Assembly (NCBI RefSeq): GCF_988242995.1
Contig: NZ_OZ547043.1
DNA length: 64,000 nt
Strand: one strand, 5' to 3'
The notes beneath the pieces are model-generated. The model was not told the origin of the DNA and searched no databases. It saw nothing but the letters and a program-made list of their open reading frames with translations. Every line of letters starts with the position of its first letter. Position 1 is the first letter of the stretch. Position numbers and translations under genes: made by a program. Shown in pieces: positions 8,457 to 33,274 of this stretch.

Positions 8457-9278
8457 ATGCGATTAGCCAGTCGTTTTGGTTATGCTGCAAACCAGATACG
8501 CCGTGACCGTCCGCTGACACATGAAGAACTGATACGCCATGTACCCAGTATTTTTGGGGAAGACCGGCACACCTCCCGCAGTGAACGGTATGCGTACATT
8601 CCCACCATTACCGTCCTGGAAAATCTGCAGCGGGAAGGCTTTCAGCCGTTCTTCGCCTGCCAGACCCGTGTGCGCGACCCGGGCCGCCGGGGATACACAA
8701 AACACATGCTGCGTCTGCGGCGGGCCGGAGAGATAAACGGAGAACATGTCCCTGAAATTATTCTGCTCAACTCTCATGACGGTACCTCCAGCTACCAGAT
8801 GCTGCCGGGTTACTTCAGGTTCGTCTGCCAGAACGGGTGCGTCTGTGGCCAGTCTCTGGGGGAAGTGCGTGTTCCACACCGGGGAAATGTAGTGGAGAAA
8901 GTTATCGAAGGGGCTTACGAGGTGGTGGGCGTGTTTGACCGGATAGAGGAGAAGCGTGATGCCATGCAGTCGCTGGTCCTGCCGCCACCGGCACGCCAGG
9001 CGCTGGCACAGGCGGCACTGACTTACCGTTATGGTGACGAACATCAGCCCGTCACCACCGCCGACATTCTGACGCCGCGACGCCGGGAGGATTACGGTAA
9101 GGACCTGTGGAGCGCATATCAGACCATCCAGGAGAATATGCTGAAAGGCGGGATTTCCGGTCGCAGTGCAAAAGGAAAACGTATCCATACCCGGGCCATT
9201 CACAGCATTGATACCGACATTAAGCTCAATCGCGCATTGTGGGTGATGGCAGAAACGATGCTGGAGAGCCTGCGCTGA
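8457..9278 (+). CDS. DUF932-family island protein (YfjQ/YafZ-like)
   Basis: RBS TAAGGAG; 273-aa protein recalled as a YfjQ/YafZ-type backbone gene of CP4 islands; antisense ORF 8463..9305 judged spurious. Confidence 0.65.
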   Translation: MRLASRFGYAANQIRRDRPLTHEELIRHVPSIFGEDRHTSRSERYAYIPTITVLENLQREGFQPFFACQTRVRDPGRRGYTKHMLRLRRAGEINGEHVPEIILLNSHDGTSSYQMLPGYFRFVCQNGCVCGQSLGEVRVPHRGNVVEKVIEGAYEVVGVFDRIEEKRDAMQSLVLPPPARQALAQAALTYRYGDEHQPVTTADILTPRRREDYGKDLWSAYQTIQENMLKGGISGRSAKGKRIHTRAIHSIDTDIKLNRALWVMAETMLESLR

Positions 9279-9359
9279 TGCCGTTTCCCTGGGTGAGGGA
9301 ATCATTCAGCTTTCGTTCCTGAAAAACACACATTTATTTGTTATTTAAGGAGTTATCTC

Positions 9360-9839
9360 ATGAAAACCGTTTCTCAGAATACCCCCACAATTTATTCAGC
9401 TACAACACCAGAGAATAATCCGCCTCAGTTGGTTGCCAGCCTCGTCCCTGATGAACAGCGCATCAGCTTCTGGCCGCAGCATTTTGGCCTCATTCCACAG
9501 TGGGTGACCCTGGAGCCCCGTGTCTTCGGCTGGATGGACCGTCTGTGCGAAGACTACTGCGGTGGTATCTGGAATCTGTACACCCTGAACAACGGCGGGG
9601 CATTTATGGCACCCGAACCGGATGACGATGATGACGAAACATGGGTACTGTTCAATGCCATGAACGGTAACCGCGCAGAAATGAGCCCGGAAGCCGCCGG
9701 TATTGCCGCCTGTCTGATGACGTACAGTCATCATGCCTGTCGTACGGAGAATTATGCCATGACGGTCCATTATTACCGGTTGCGGGATTACGCCCTGCAG
9801 CATCCGGAATGCAGCGCCATTATGCGCATCATCGACTGA
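9360..9839 (+). CDS. antirestriction-like protein (YfjX/YafX-like)
   Basis: 159-aa acidic protein immediately upstream of radC-like gene, matching conserved island synteny. Confidence 0.55.
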   Translation: MKTVSQNTPTIYSATTPENNPPQLVASLVPDEQRISFWPQHFGLIPQWVTLEPRVFGWMDRLCEDYCGGIWNLYTLNNGGAFMAPEPDDDDDETWVLFNAMNGNRAEMSPEAAGIAACLMTYSHHACRTENYAMTVHYYRLRDYALQHPECSAIMRIID

Positions 9840-9854
9840 ATGGAGAGAAGCACA

Positions 9855-10331
9855 ATGCAACAACTTTCCTTTCTGCCCGGAGAGATGACGCCCGGCGAGC
9901 GCAGCCTCATTCAGCGGGCCCTGAAAACCCTGGACCGCCATCTTCATGAACCCGGCGTGGCCTTCACCTCCACCCGTGCAGCACGGGAATGGCTGATTCT
10001 GAACATGGCGGGACTGGAGCGTGAAGAATTCCGGGTGCTGTATCTGAACAACCAGAATCAGCTGATTGCCGGTGAAACCCTCTTCACCGGCACCATCAAC
10101 CGCACGGAAGTCCATCCCCGGGAAGTGATTAAACGCGCCCTGTACCACAATGCCGCTGCCGTGGTACTGGCACACAATCACCCGTCCGGTGAAGTCACAC
10201 CCAGTAAGGCAGACCGGCTTATCACCGAACGTCTGGTACAGGCACTGGGCCTGGTGGATATCCGGGTGCCGGACCATCTGATAGTCGGTGGCAACCAGGT
10301 TTTCTCCTTTGCCGAACATGGTCTGCTTTAA
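9855..10331 (+). CDS. yeeS: RadC-like JAB/MPN domain protein
   Basis: JAMM motif HNHPSGEVTPS; start taken at MQQLSFLPGE; CP4-44 synteny. Confidence 0.75.
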   Translation: MQQLSFLPGEMTPGERSLIQRALKTLDRHLHEPGVAFTSTRAAREWLILNMAGLEREEFRVLYLNNQNQLIAGETLFTGTINRTEVHPREVIKRALYHNAAAVVLAHNHPSGEVTPSKADRLITERLVQALGLVDIRVPDHLIVGGNQVFSFAEHGLL

Positions 10332-10393
10332 CCCTTCACAACCACATCACACCTGTTTTCACTTTTATCTTCTGTCTTCAGAGGTATCCCATT

Positions 10394-10615
10394 ATGAAAA
10401 TTATCACCCGTGGTGAAGCCATGCGTATTCACCAACAACATCCGACATCCCGTCTTTTTCCGTTCTGTACCGGTAAATACCGCTGGCACGGCAGTGCTGA
10501 AGCGTATACCGGTCGTGAAGTGCAGGATATTCCCGGTGTGCTGGCCGTGTTTGCTGAACGCCGTAAGGACAGTTTTGGTCCGTATGTCCGGCTGATGAGC
10601 GTCACCCTGAACTGA
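10394..10615 (+). CDS. yeeT: DUF987 protein YeeT
   Basis: 73-aa ORF matching recalled YeeT sequence and position. Confidence 0.75.
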   Translation: MKIITRGEAMRIHQQHPTSRLFPFCTGKYRWHGSAEAYTGREVQDIPGVLAVFAERRKDSFGPYVRLMSVTLN

Positions 10616-10688
10616 GTGGGAATTCTGATGAGCAGAATTATCGCCACTACCGGACCATTCTTAGCCGATTTTCTGTAAGGATTTTATC

Positions 10689-11057
10689 GTGTCAGACACA
10701 CTCCCCGGGACAACACTTCCCGACGACAATCACGACCGCCCCTGGTGGGGGCTGCCCTGCACCGTGACGCCCTGTTTCGGGGCACGTCTGGTGCAGGAGG
10801 GTAACCGGTTGCATTACCTTGCCGACCGCGCCGGTATCAGAGGCCTGTTCAGCGATGCAGATGCGTACCACCTGGACCAGGCCTTTCCGCTGCTGATGAA
10901 ACAACTGGAACTCATGCTCACCAGCGGTGAACTGAATCCCCGCCATCAGCATACCGTCACGCTGTATGCAAAAGGGCTGACCTGCAAAGCCGATACCCTC
11001 AGCAGTTGTGGTTACGTTTATCTGGCTGTTTATCCGACGCCCGAAATGAAAAATTAA
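10689..11057 (+). CDS. cbeA: CbeA (YeeU) antitoxin of the CbtA/CbeA type IV TA system
   Basis: GTG start, 122 aa, MSDTLPGTTLPDDNHDRPWWGLPC matches recalled YeeU. Confidence 0.8.
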   Translation: MSDTLPGTTLPDDNHDRPWWGLPCTVTPCFGARLVQEGNRLHYLADRAGIRGLFSDADAYHLDQAFPLLMKQLELMLTSGELNPRHQHTVTLYAKGLTCKADTLSSCGYVYLAVYPTPEMKN

Positions 11058-11145
11058 CTCTCCAGAATAGCCTTCTGCTACGGCCTGGTGTTTTCACCAC
11101 GCCACTTTTCCATTTTTATATCTGCATATCAGGAAAATCTTCAGT

Positions 11146-11519
11146 ATGAAAACATTACCTGTATTACCCGGGCAGGCGGCCAGTTCTCGCCCGTCTCCTG
11201 TTGAAATCTGGCAGATACTGCTGTCCCGACTGCTGGACCAGCACTATGGCCTCACACTGAATGACACACCTTTTGCCGATGAACGTGTGATTGAGCAGCA
11301 TATTGAGGCAGGCATTTCACTGTGTGATGCGGTGAACTTTCTCGTGGAAAAATACGCGCTGATGCTACCGACCAGCCGGGATTCAGCGCCTGTACCCGCT
11401 CTCAGTTAATAAACAGCATCGATATCCTCCGGGCTCGCAGGGCGACCGGCCTGATGACCCGCGACAATTACAGAACGGTAAATAACATTACCCTGGGTAA
11501 GTATCCGGAGGCGAAATGA
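11146..11519 (+). pseudogene. cbtA: cbtA (yeeV) toxin gene, frameshifted
   Basis: N-terminal 81 aa match recalled CbtA, then the frame terminates at 11409; the CbtA C-terminus ([39 protein letters not shown]) is encoded in the -1 frame ending at 11519; span is 374 nt, one short of the expected 375. Confidence 0.65.
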
Positions 11520-11710
11520 TGACACTGGAAGCCGACAGCGTTAACGTACAGGCGCTGGATATGGGGCACATTGTCGTTGACATTGATGGTGTTAATATCA
11601 CTGAACTGATTAATAAGGCCGCTGAAAACGGTTATTCACTCCGCGTGGTGGATGACCGTGACTCTACCGAAACACCGGCAACTTATGCCAGCCCTCACCA
11701 GTTGCTGTAA
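11516..11710 (+). CDS. yeeW: YeeW
   Basis: 64-aa ORF whose ATG overlaps the expected cbtA stop; CP4-44 synteny. Confidence 0.65.
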   Translation: MMTLEADSVNVQALDMGHIVVDIDGVNITELINKAAENGYSLRVVDDRDSTETPATYASPHQLL

Positions 11711-12124
11711 GACAATGCAGTGATGCAGGGTATAGTGCCATTAACCACAGAAACAGCACTGTTGTCCTGTATTAAGCAGGCAAGAGAAGATGTCCTTACC
11801 CTGCGCCATCTGCAGCTTCTGCACCAGAACCGGTGAATCTCACTCAACAGGCTTCATTTCCCCTGACGCCAGCCTGAATACAGCTGGCGTTTTCATTTAT
11901 AAACAGAAAGGAAAACCGATAATAATGGAATGGACGCCCCGACCATGAAGCAACGGTAGGATATTACTGATAAACCTTCCAGTGGAGGTGCGTTATGGCC
12001 GTTTTAACGATTAGCATTGACCTGACAAAAAATGAATTCCAAATCCACGGTCTGGGTAGGAACAGAAAAATCTAAGCTCAGAAAACGGATTAAAGTAAGC
12101 GTCAACGGAGCACCGTATTGACGC

Positions 12125-12330
12125 TTATTTATTGGTGAGAACTACGTTCCATGGCAGGAGTTCGTCAACACGGTTGGAGGGCCATTCCGGCAGTATGCTC
12201 AGAATATGGCGCAGATACGCTTCCGGATCGATACCGTTCAGACGGCAGGTGCCTGCTTTTCCGGCAACAAGCAGGAATCTCAGTGCTGAAGCAGGAATTA
12301 GAGGTAAAAACGCCCTACCGGGCCATGAAT
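12125..12330 (-). pseudogene. C-terminal fragment of an IS66-family-like transposase
   Basis: Minus-strand frame reads ...GKAGTCRLNGIDPEAYLRHILSILPEWPSNRVDELLPWNVVLTNK-stop with no upstream start; resembles IS66 TnpC C-terminus from memory. Confidence 0.4.
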
Positions 12331-12507
12331 CACCCGGTCATTGGAGTAGTAACCAAAGCAGATTTAGCCAGCATGGAACAAATATCTTTGGTGAAAAGTT
12401 GGTTACGGGAAGCTGGAGCGCACAACGTGTTAGTAACCAGTGCAGTTAATAACAATGGAGTTACAGAACTTTTTGCCTTGCTGCATACAGAAGAAGGCTG
12501 TTGTTAA
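12289..12507 (+). pseudogene. yoeF: EutP/PduV-family GTPase C-terminal fragment (yoeF-like)
   Basis: Frame encodes ...HPVIGVVTKADLASMEQISLVKSWLREAGAHNVLVTSAVNNNGVTELFALL; no credible N-terminal part. Confidence 0.45.
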
Positions 12508-12607
12508 TTTCGATTGGTTCTCAGATGAGAATGATGACGGTGATACACAGATAAGAATCAATGAGCAATGAGGGTTGCCGGGCAACCCTCATTGAATAAA
12601 ACGGGAA

Positions 12608-13108: not shown

Positions 13109-14167
13109 TTATTTGCGCAAGGCCCGGCAAATCAGATTCGATAGCAACTCAAGCTGATGTGCCGTTTCCATGTTCAGCCACACATAACCATAGATTGGTG
13201 TTTCCACAACCTTCAGGTCATGGTGGTTATTGAGCAACTGACGCAGCTCTTCCACAGCATCGTTCAATTTTTCCGTATTGGCAAAAACCGGCTGCGGATT
13301 ACCTTCGTACAACGCATGAACAAGGCTCAGCAGTATTTGCTGCATCATGTGCTGGGTATCACGAAGTTTTTGCGCGTTCAATAACACGAAATGGCTGGGG
13401 CGCGTGGCCCAGTACGCATTGATTTGCAACTCCAGCATACAAACCAGATTGCGGTTAATGGTCTGGATACCTTCATATATCGATTTTGGAATACGGGTTT
13501 CTTTGCTGGCGGGCGCAATCAGCCCACGCATTTTCACGGCATCGGTCAGGAGTTTTTGTAGATGGCTTTCCAGACGTGGGCGTTCGAGTAAGTTCGGTGA
13601 GAATGCAGATTGATAGACCCGATTATACTCGGTCAGACTTTTCGCCAGTTGAATGCGCCAGTGGATGAACGCCCGTTGTGGCCAGATACCGGTAAACAAC
13701 ATTGCCAGTAAAGAGCCGAGGATCACATCGCCGCTTCGCCATAACGCCGTATCAATTTCACCTGTCGGGGAACCAACAACAATTGCCAGCGTCACCCCAA
13801 TCAATAATCCTTGATACGGTTTCTTGCCCAGCGCCAGCCAACCGCAAAGAAACATAGCCGCCGCGCACCAGACTAACATCAGCGGTAACGAGATTAACTC
13901 CAGTTGCAGAGCGATAAGACCTAATATCGAACCCAACACCGTACCGCCAATACGTTCGAAGGCGCGAGGGACAACGTTACCCCAGAACGAGATTGGCCCC
14001 ATAATCACCACCATGGTGACCAGCGGCCAGGTACTTTCCGGGATAGTAAACAGGCGGATAATGAGAAAAGTGAGCAGGAATGCCAGCGCGACCCGAGTAC
14101 CATGCACAATGCGGTAATGGCGGTATACCCGGATTTCAAACGGGCTTAATGACTTATCGGCACGCAC
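13109..14167 (-). CDS. yeeA: inner membrane protein YeeA (FUSC-like)
   Basis: 352-aa multi-pass membrane ORF in K-12 synteny. Confidence 0.8.
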   Translation of the reverse strand: MRADKSLSPFEIRVYRHYRIVHGTRVALAFLLTFLIIRLFTIPESTWPLVTMVVIMGPISFWGNVVPRAFERIGGTVLGSILGLIALQLELISLPLMLVWCAAAMFLCGWLALGKKPYQGLLIGVTLAIVVGSPTGEIDTALWRSGDVILGSLLAMLFTGIWPQRAFIHWRIQLAKSLTEYNRVYQSAFSPNLLERPRLESHLQKLLTDAVKMRGLIAPASKETRIPKSIYEGIQTINRNLVCMLELQINAYWATRPSHFVLLNAQKLRDTQHMMQQILLSLVHALYEGNPQPVFANTEKLNDAVEELRQLLNNHHDLKVVETPIYGYVWLNMETAHQLELLSNLICRALRK

Positions 14168-14365
14168 GCAGAAACTCCGTAATGAAGATTAAAAGCGCTC
14201 ATAACTCATCTGTCGGCCAGAAGGCGCGCCTCTGAATTATCCGACGGACAAACCGGGAACAGTGTAATTTCCCGGCAGGAGCGAAAAATTTGAAAGGCGC
14301 ATCTTACTCTTTTCGCTTTCAAAAAAAAGAGTGGTCATCGCGTTAACACACCGCCCTGAGATGAA

Positions 14366-14839
14366 TTAGTGATGTTTTGGCTGCACCGCAACATACATTT
14401 CGATATCCCAGTACCCATCTTCCGCGCCATTGTTCAAATAAACCTCGAAGCAGGGCTTTGGTAACATTTCATAAGCACTGTCCTGCAAGAGGCTATTAAA
14501 GAACTGATACCAGGGTTTAGCAAAATCATCACCGACTACACGAGCCACCGCAACCGCATACTGACCACCTGAAATTTCTGTCAGAATGACGCCCTCACTG
14601 TTTTCGGGGAGCGTAAAGTTATTCGGTACCGTCACGACGGTGTCGCAGCGTAATTTTTCGGCGGGTGTTTCATCTGGATTGTCGTAATAGACAGCAACCC
14701 ACTCCTTCGGCACAATATTTTGGCTATCTACCCACATCATCAACTGCTCAAAACCTTTCTTTACCGTCTGTTCCCACGGGCCAACGAGATGGAAACCTGC
14801 AACGGTACGTTTATCTTCCTGCTTAATCTCGTAGTTCAT
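14366..14839 (-). CDS. sbmC: DNA gyrase inhibitor SbmC (GyrI)
   Basis: 157 aa, [25 protein letters not shown] matches recalled SbmC. Confidence 0.9.
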
Positions 14840-14853
14840 GACGCCTCCATTAA

Positions 14854-14873
14854 TACTGTTTTTATATACAGTA
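14854..14873 (-). promoter_or_regulatory. LexA SOS box in sbmC promoter
   Basis: TACTGTTTTTATATACAGTA (CTGT-N8-ACAG) 15 bp upstream of sbmC start. Confidence 0.7.
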
Positions 14874-14957
14874 TAGTTGCAATATTAAAACCACAAGGAA
14901 TGAGTGTTGATTATGCGAGCAGACTCGCACTCCTGCCAGTCTGCTGCAAAAGAAAGG

Positions 14958-16130
14958 TCAGGCCTTATGGTGGAAATAATCACTCAGGCGAGAAAACATG
15001 CTGCCTTCCCCGACAGATTCCAGGGTAACCAGCGGCCAGTGCGCCACCTGTTTATCACGGTCGTAAAGTTCAATTTCCCCTACCCGCTGATGGGCGCTAA
15101 TTGGCGCGGTGAGTTCTTTACCATCAAGGGTATATTTGGCTTTGATATGTGGAATTTCGGCTTTCGGTAGCACCATCCAGAACTCTTGTTCCGTTCCCAG
15201 GGCGATATTTTCTTTATCGCCATACCAGATGCGTTCCGTACCGACCTTTTTCCCACGGTGCAAAATTTGCACCGTAGTAAAGTTTTGTTGCCCCCAACGC
15301 AGTAATTTTCTTGCCTCTTCCTCACGACCTTTTGCGCTGTCAGCACCCATTACCACTGCAATGAGACGACGCTGCCCATCTACAGCCGAAGCAATGAGAT
15401 TAAACCCGGCACCAGAAGTATGACCCGTTTTCAGGCCGTCAACATTCATGGTTTTATCCCACAATAACCCGTTACGGTTTTGCTGGGTGATACCGTTCCA
15501 GGTGAGGCTTTTCTCACTGTACATATGATAAAACTCGGGCTCGCCGTGGATGATAGCACGAGAAAGCACAGCTAAATCATAAGCCGAGCTATGCTGACCT
15601 GGCGCATCCAGGCCATGCACTGTTTCAAAATGCGTATCCTTGAGATGCAGCTTCTCGGCATAGTTGTTCATCATTTCAACAAACTGCCGTTGCCCACCGG
15701 CAATATAGTCAGCCAGAGCAACACAAGCGTCATTTCCGGAATCAACAATTAAACCACGGCTTAAATCACGTACCGATACGCGATCGCCCTCTTTCAAAAA
15801 CATCAGTGAAGAACCGACAAACACCGGATTATCTTTCGCCCACGCATCGCGCCCCACGGTGACAATATCGTCTGGCGTAATGCGATGACTATCGATAGCG
15901 CGATCCACGACATAGCCCGTCATCAGCTTTGTCAGGCTGGCGGGATTGCGCTGTTGATGCTCATTACCCGCGGTGAGAATCTGACCGGTGGTGTAATCCA
16001 TCAGTACCCAGGACCCGGCTTGAATCTGTGGAGGCTGAGGTGAAAAAGGAATGTTTTCCGCCGCAAAACCAGACGATAAGTTAAAAACGAACAAAGAAGC
16101 AGCAATAATAAGACGGCGTTTCAACAGCAA
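14958..16130 (-). CDS. dacD: D-alanyl-D-alanine carboxypeptidase DacD (PBP6b)
   Basis: 390-aa ORF with signal peptide, SxxK motif (ASLTK) and SGN; K-12 synteny. Confidence 0.9.
   Translation of the reverse strand: MLLKRRLIIAASLFVFNLSSGFAAENIPFSPQPPQIQAGSWVLMDYTTGQILTAGNEHQQRNPASLTKLMTGYVVDRAIDSHRITPDDIVTVGRDAWAKDNPVFVGSSLMFLKEGDRVSVRDLSRGLIVDSGNDACVALADYIAGGQRQFVEMMNNYAEKLHLKDTHFETVHGLDAPGQHSSAYDLAVLSRAIIHGEPEFYHMYSEKSLTWNGITQQNRNGLLWDKTMNVDGLKTGHTSGAGFNLIASAVDGQRRLIAVVMGADSAKGREEEARKLLRWGQQNFTTVQILHRGKKVGTERIWYGDKENIALGTEQEFWMVLPKAEIPHIKAKYTLDGKELTAPISAHQRVGEIELYDRDKQVAHWPLVTLESVGEGSMFSRLSDYFHHKA

Positions 16131-32098: not shown

Positions 32099-33274
<1,176 letters not shown>

Follow-up and report, generated by a model that had tools for sequence, protein, structure and literature searches.

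The LexA box in front of sbmC (gyrI) in an Escherichia coli chromosome: promoter geometry, conservation in the Enterobacteriaceae and insertions of ISKox3

The 20 bp between positions 14,854 and 14,873 of the window, by which we mean the whole 64,000-nucleotide stretch of DNA that was analysed, are the LexA operator of the sbmC (gyrI) promoter, a reading to which we assign a probability of about 95%. The operator reads TACTGTATATAAAAACAGTA on the minus strand, which is the strand of sbmC, and TACTGTTTTTATATACAGTA on the plus strand. It is the already known sbmC/gyrI SOS box of E. coli K-12 and as such a textbook operator. A sequence-only reading of the window had described a CTGT-N8-ACAG palindrome at 14,854–14,873 in front of sbmC and had taken it as a sign that the gene is SOS-inducible. 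Its coordinates were exact, as confirmed by direct reading of the sequence; the distance of 15 bp to the start of sbmC that came with them was approximate, as the 20-mer ends 14 nt and the 16-bp core 16 nt from the ATG.

The sbmC locus and the score of its LexA box

The window is E. coli chromosome. The region between 14,300 and 15,000 was 100% identical to E. coli strains S88 and MS7163, and an alignment of S88 with the first 35 kb of the window revealed two differing positions only. The genes on the minus strand were, in order, yeeA, sbmC (14,366–14,839) and dacD (14,958–16,130), which matched the yeeA-sbmC-dacD-sbcB order of K-12. The sbmC open reading frame encoded 157 amino acids and carried the label sbmC in the RefSeq annotation of E. 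coli genomes with DNA 100% identical to this stretch. The full-length product (residues 1–157) aligned with the crystal structure PDB 1JYH, 'DNA gyrase inhibitory protein', at E = 4.8e-106 and is the SbmC/GyrI gyrase inhibitor. The ATG start codon lay at 14,839–14,837 on the minus strand. It was preceded at a distance of 4 nt by a Shine-Dalgarno sequence, GGAGG (14,848–14,844, minus strand), which could be read directly between the LexA 20-mer and the ATG and was kept in nearly all orthologous loci.

Downstream of sbmC, yeeA and the spacer between the two genes occupied 13,109–14,365. No terminator-like or promoter-like site was found in this 198 nt sbmC-yeeA gap and yeeA is among the UV-induced genes of a K-12 tiling-array study (PMC3009722), so that a LexA-controlled sbmC transcript may read through into yeeA. 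Kim 2012 placed a start for yeeA, represented by eight reads, inside sbmC. Further away, upstream of tmaR/yeeX, positions 1–12,600 were a genomic-island segment corresponding to S88 coordinates 2,066,458–2,079,000. According to the S88 annotation this segment encoded a GTPase, a dynamin-family protein, an RdcB-family protein and a patatin-like phospholipase, followed by antirestriction, yeeS and yeeT genes and the cbeA/cbtA toxin-antitoxin pair, of which cbtA was frameshifted.

The CTGT-N8-ACAG core of the box was located at 14,856–14,871 and was the sole match to this pattern in the window. The bare pattern is not significant alone; 0.67 matches were expected per 64-kb window and at least one match was present in 52 of 100 shuffles. 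This expectation, together with an AT-rich centre of the kind found in many promoters, would suit a chance feature of the promoter, such as a -10 or UP-like element, that has no LexA role. The whole 20-mer is significant. The two mismatches of TACTGTATATAAAAACAGTA to the 20-bp consensus TACTG(TA)5CAGTA were confined to the central (TA)5 tract, and matches to this consensus with three or fewer mismatches were absent from all 100 shuffles of the window, which argues against a chance origin.

The heterology index (HI) was calculated with the Berg-von Hippel/Lewis formula from a matrix of 17 K-12 LexA boxes (PMC3009722 Table 4) from which the sbmC box had been left out. The sbmC box had an HI of 0.58, or 0.95 once the identical umuD site had also been dropped from the matrix. 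It had the best HI of the 127,962 20-mers in the window, approximately 6 sd below the background (mean 35.8, sd 5.7), a wide margin that again stands against a chance feature. When the known K-12 training sites were scored by leave-one-out, their HI ranged from 0.58 to 12.8 and the sbmC box scored better than every one of them. The published HI of the same sequence is 2.8 (Courcelle 2001 values quoted in PMC11228462). CTG and CAG arms spaced by 10 bp and a low HI, both characteristic of the E. coli-type LexA box, were thus present, and the proposal of a LexA box stood up to heterology-index scoring as the top site of the window.

The second-best independent LexA-like 20-mer, TTCTGCATAGCTATCCAGTT, was found at 32,609–32,628 within the ugd coding sequence; it had an HI of 9.81 and is probably a chance match. 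The remaining LexA-like sites of the window had an HI of 11 or more and were treated as chance matches.

Relatives of the box in K-12, Salmonella and other Enterobacteriaceae

Comparison with the sbmC promoter of K-12 (MG1655) also bore out the earlier claim. The 20-mers were identical, and the 191-bp alignment that includes the box contained three substitutions, all of them outside it. The window had A at 14,883, in the promoter spacer, where K-12 had T, and T at 14,852, 2 nt below the box, where K-12 had C; codon 9 of sbmC encoded Asp in the window and Glu in K-12. K-12 sbmC (gyrI, b2009) otherwise had the same box, distance to the ATG, Shine-Dalgarno sequence, -35 and -10 candidates and CRP-S site. 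In K-12 this gene is induced by UV (PMC3009722; PMC5999292), and its 5.7-fold induction by AZT was accompanied by a 9.5-fold dependence on LexA cleavage, as determined with lexA3 (PMC11228462).

The LexA box of umuDC in E. coli K-12, which is among the best consensus matches of the regulon, is exactly TACTGTATATAAAAACAGTA over its 20 bp (PMC3009722 Table 4). From this operator identity and the lexA3-dependent expression of sbmC, we infer that LexA binds at 14,854–14,873. The umuDC gene and promoter context is unlike that of sbmC, to which CRP-S/Sxy and RpoS inputs are added. In K-12, AZT induced umuD 56-fold compared to the 5.7-fold of sbmC (PMC11228462), and as the two share the same operator, the strength of induction must depend on more than the operator sequence.

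Salmonella enterica sbmC (STM14_2551) likewise has one box only, a short distance from the start codon, and is induced by nalidixic acid (PMC8072944). That box is a weaker match to the consensus (published HI 6.32) and the induction was lower, at 3.55-fold (PMC8072944). The gene was assigned to an expression class represented as group III (PMC8072944), a placement which indicates that LexA is not the sole determinant of sbmC expression. 

Other work on sbmC points the same way. A reporter for sbmC showed biphasic behaviour, probably that of an alternative sigma factor (PMC5999292), and Baquero 1995 and Oh 2001, to go by their titles, describe an SOS gene on which RpoS and H-NS act too.

The sbmC loci of 80 Enterobacteriaceae species from approximately 20 genera were then scored over the 150 nt 5′ of each start codon. 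A LexA-type box (HI of 12.6 or less) was present 5′ of sbmC in 77 of the 80 species, always 14–24 nt from the ATG; in 71 species the HI was 8 or less, and the median HI was 4.19. Shuffled upstream regions had a mean HI of 19.2 with a 1st percentile of 12.7, and coding segments of equal size never fell below 12.8. The CTGT and ACAG arms were kept across the approximately 20 genera while the flanks diverged. In two Salmonella loci (L015 and L019) the box lay 16 nt from the ATG, and the arms of the former read CACTGT and ACAGTG, in line with the weaker consensus match of the Salmonella box.

No LexA box was found 5′ of sbmC in three of the 80 species (loci L081, L077 and L076). The first of these, from Escherichia sp. 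MOD1-EC7003, had an internally deleted box, TTGCAAACATACTGATTGGAGG, at approximately 1455–1500 of the locus, and its SbmC match ended at residue 82; this sbmC is probably a pseudogene. Klebsiella michiganensis DSM 25444 (L077) carried a GC-rich palindromic sequence, GGGGGTACCCGGTAACGGGTATCCCTACCGCG, at the position of the box. The third boxless species was Intestinirhabdus alba (L076).

The SOS inducibility of sbmC put forward in the sequence-only reading is therefore supported by the HI, by identity to K-12, by conservation in 77 of 80 species and by the published LexA-dependent induction of the identical K-12 box. The same lines of evidence, namely score, conservation and expression data, effectively refute the view of the palindrome as a chance AT-rich promoter feature. 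Identity to the umuDC operator, arms that were kept in approximately 20 genera when the flanks were not and published LexA-dependent induction (PMC11228462) all stand against it, and we consider its probability negligible.

Promoter geometry, the CRP-S site and the mode of repression

All sbmC loci were aligned with the box as the anchor. A putative -10 hexamer, TATACT (14,870–14,875, minus strand), was preceded by C at 14,876 to give CTATACT and was kept across genera; a hexamer of the form TAnAnT occupied this place, with TATACT in E. coli, whereas Citrobacter had TACACT and Enterobacter TATAGT, and it overlapped the upstream arm of the box each time. An alternative -10 register, TACTGT, was present at 14,873–14,868, and both registers overlapped the upstream arm of the box. 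The putative -35 element was TTGTGG (14,891–14,896, minus strand), of which the TTG motif was kept across genera, 15–18 nt 5′ of the -10 in Escherichia, Citrobacter, Enterobacter, Kluyvera and Leclercia. The spacer from TTGTGG was 15 nt to TATACT and 17 nt to TACTGT, and the exact -10 register is uncertain since the TTGTGG-TATACT spacer of E. coli is only 15 nt. CTATACT resembles a sigma-S -10, which fits with the stationary-phase/RpoS control reported for sbmC and with its biphasic reporter. A sigma-54 reading of CTGGCA and the TGC that follows it was rejected on inspection, as the GG-to-GC spacing was 9 nt and not 12 nt.

The transcription start probably lies between 14,861 and 14,865 on the minus strand, inside the LexA box, as indicated by a distance of 7 nt 3′ of either -10, which gives approximately 14,863–14,861, and by tiling-array data. 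The UV-induced sbmC transcript of K-12 begins 100 nt after AGGCCTGACC, as determined on an array with an intergenic resolution of approximately 7 nt (PMC3009722). This 5′ end maps to approximately position 14,865 of the window, plus or minus approximately 7 nt. In the genome-wide transcription start set of Kim 2012, the start for sbmC was represented by two reads only and was located 571 nt upstream, inside dacD; it is regarded as uninformative for a repressed proximal promoter. Cappable-seq data listed no start at the expected coordinates of sbmC.

A second palindrome, TGCGAGTCTGCTCGCA (14,914–14,929, minus strand), was located 41 nt 5′ of the LexA box and was identical in K-12. A match to TGTGA-N6-TCACA with two or fewer mismatches was present in 75 of the 81 sbmC loci, with no change in its distance, compared to 7% of shuffles. 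Its 16-bp core, TGCGA-N6-TCGCA, had the C at position 6 and the G at position 17 of a CRP-S site, and the palindrome is the known CRP-S site of sbmC, for which Sxy and CRP dependence has been reported (PMC1635313). Sxy raised sbmC 6-fold, with CRP and cAMP being required, and activation from this site is of the class I type (PMC1635313). Its centre lay at approximately -58 to -61 relative to the putative start, and the narrower range of approximately -58.5 to -60.5 fits the published class I mechanism. Most other genera had TGCGA-N6-TCACA or TGTGA-N6-GCACA at this site, both nearer to the canonical CRP site than the E. coli version.

The CRP-S site of E. coli is overlapped by a strong, E. coli-specific hairpin with the arms GCAGCAGACU and AGUCUGCUCGC (14,919–14,948, minus strand), which had a folding energy of -25.8 kcal/mol (z = -3.0). 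The hairpin was situated just 3′ of the dacD stop codon (14,958–14,960) and was without a U-tail. RNAalifold analysis of 24 genera revealed no conserved base pair at the palindrome. As no pair was conserved and the Klebsiella group had a separate terminator upstream, the palindrome was rejected as a dacD terminator or RNA hairpin and taken to be a protein-binding site instead. The hairpin might weakly terminate dacD transcription, or act as a stabiliser, in Escherichia only.

As the LexA box overlaps both the -10 and the start, we infer that repression is by occlusion, and LexA most likely blocks RNA polymerase at the proximal sbmC promoter. Three observations make occlusion the best-supported mode: the conserved overlap with the -10, the array 5′ end at approximately 14,865 and the class I spacing of the CRP-S site. 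LexA could instead act as a downstream roadblock to transcription from a distal promoter, in which CTGGCA (14,939–14,934) and CATAAT (14,915–14,910) are separated by 18 nt, the start is at approximately 14,903 and the box lies at approximately +31 to +50. This distal pair had 9 of 12 matches in a promoter scan, and CATAAT/CATACT was very well conserved across genera, but the overlap of this hexamer with the CRP-S palindrome TGCGA-N6-TCGCA(T) accounts for its conservation. Were transcription to begin at 14,903, the CRP site would be at approximately -18.5, a position that cannot be reconciled with the class I activation that has been published (PMC1635313). Nor was CTGGCA kept in Salmonella or the Klebsiella/Raoultella group. 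On these grounds the roadblock was rated very unlikely. In addition, the 5′ end of the UV transcript was approximately 40 nt 3′ of the distal start, on an array with a resolution of approximately 7 nt, and it was the proximal -35/-10 pair that was conserved.

Under occlusion of the proximal promoter, a LexA dimer would sit on the 20-bp palindrome (14,873–14,854) in undamaged cells. The palindrome would cover the -10 hexamer and the start, leaving RNA polymerase without a productive complex. Upon DNA damage, RecA on single-stranded DNA stimulates the self-cleavage of LexA, and the operator would be vacated. The freed promoter would then give rise to an sbmC transcript with a short leader of approximately 22–26 nt, which may run on into yeeA. 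Positive inputs to the same promoter come from CRP with Sxy at the CRP-S site, approximately 60 nt 5′ of the start, and from RpoS in stationary phase.

ISKox3 insertions at the operator centre and implications

The box of the window itself was intact, without ISKox3, and represents the ancestral form. A 60-bp probe was compared to 5426 complete E. coli genomes, with junction probes for each orientation of the insertion. The 60-bp probe was matched only in part by 266 genomes. In two examples from among these, L083 (NZ_CP033158; junctions at 1540/1541 and approximately 2856) and L084 (NZ_CM176575), an ISL3-family element, ISKox3, was present at the exact centre of the box. The two insertions were at the same position in opposite orientations and had an 8-bp target duplication, ATATAAAA. 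This target corresponds to 14,867–14,860 of the window, which is the AT-rich centre of the operator. ISKox3 junctions were detected in 217 of the 5426 complete E. coli genomes (4.0%), with 137 in one orientation and 80 in the other. As both orientations occur, the element must have entered at this very base on two or more independent occasions.

ISKox3 parted the two LexA half-sites and left the native promoter approximately 1.3 kb from sbmC. Since the residual half-boxes beside the element had an HI of 15.8 or worse, LexA control should be lost in these strains. To judge from the sequence, the insertion would detach sbmC from its SOS, CRP-S and RpoS promoter. In the literature that could be searched, no paper mentioned ISKox3 together with sbmC. 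We propose, tentatively and as something rather less than probable, that the operator centre is a recurrent target of ISKox3 and that, if the insertions alter the expression of sbmC, the box serves as a natural on/off or rewiring switch.

The conserved elements described here yield a cross-genus footprint of the sbmC control region, comprising the CRP-S site, the -35, the -10 with the LexA box and the Shine-Dalgarno sequence, and the box can be used as a clean positive control for the calling of LexA boxes. For the cell, the box explains the production after DNA damage of SbmC, which protects cells from gyrase poisons. The disruption of this operator by an insertion sequence in approximately 4% of complete E. 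coli genomes may merit a separate look; were the box a switch, it would govern how well successful lineages tolerate gyrase poisons (quinolones, microcin B17 and CcdB).
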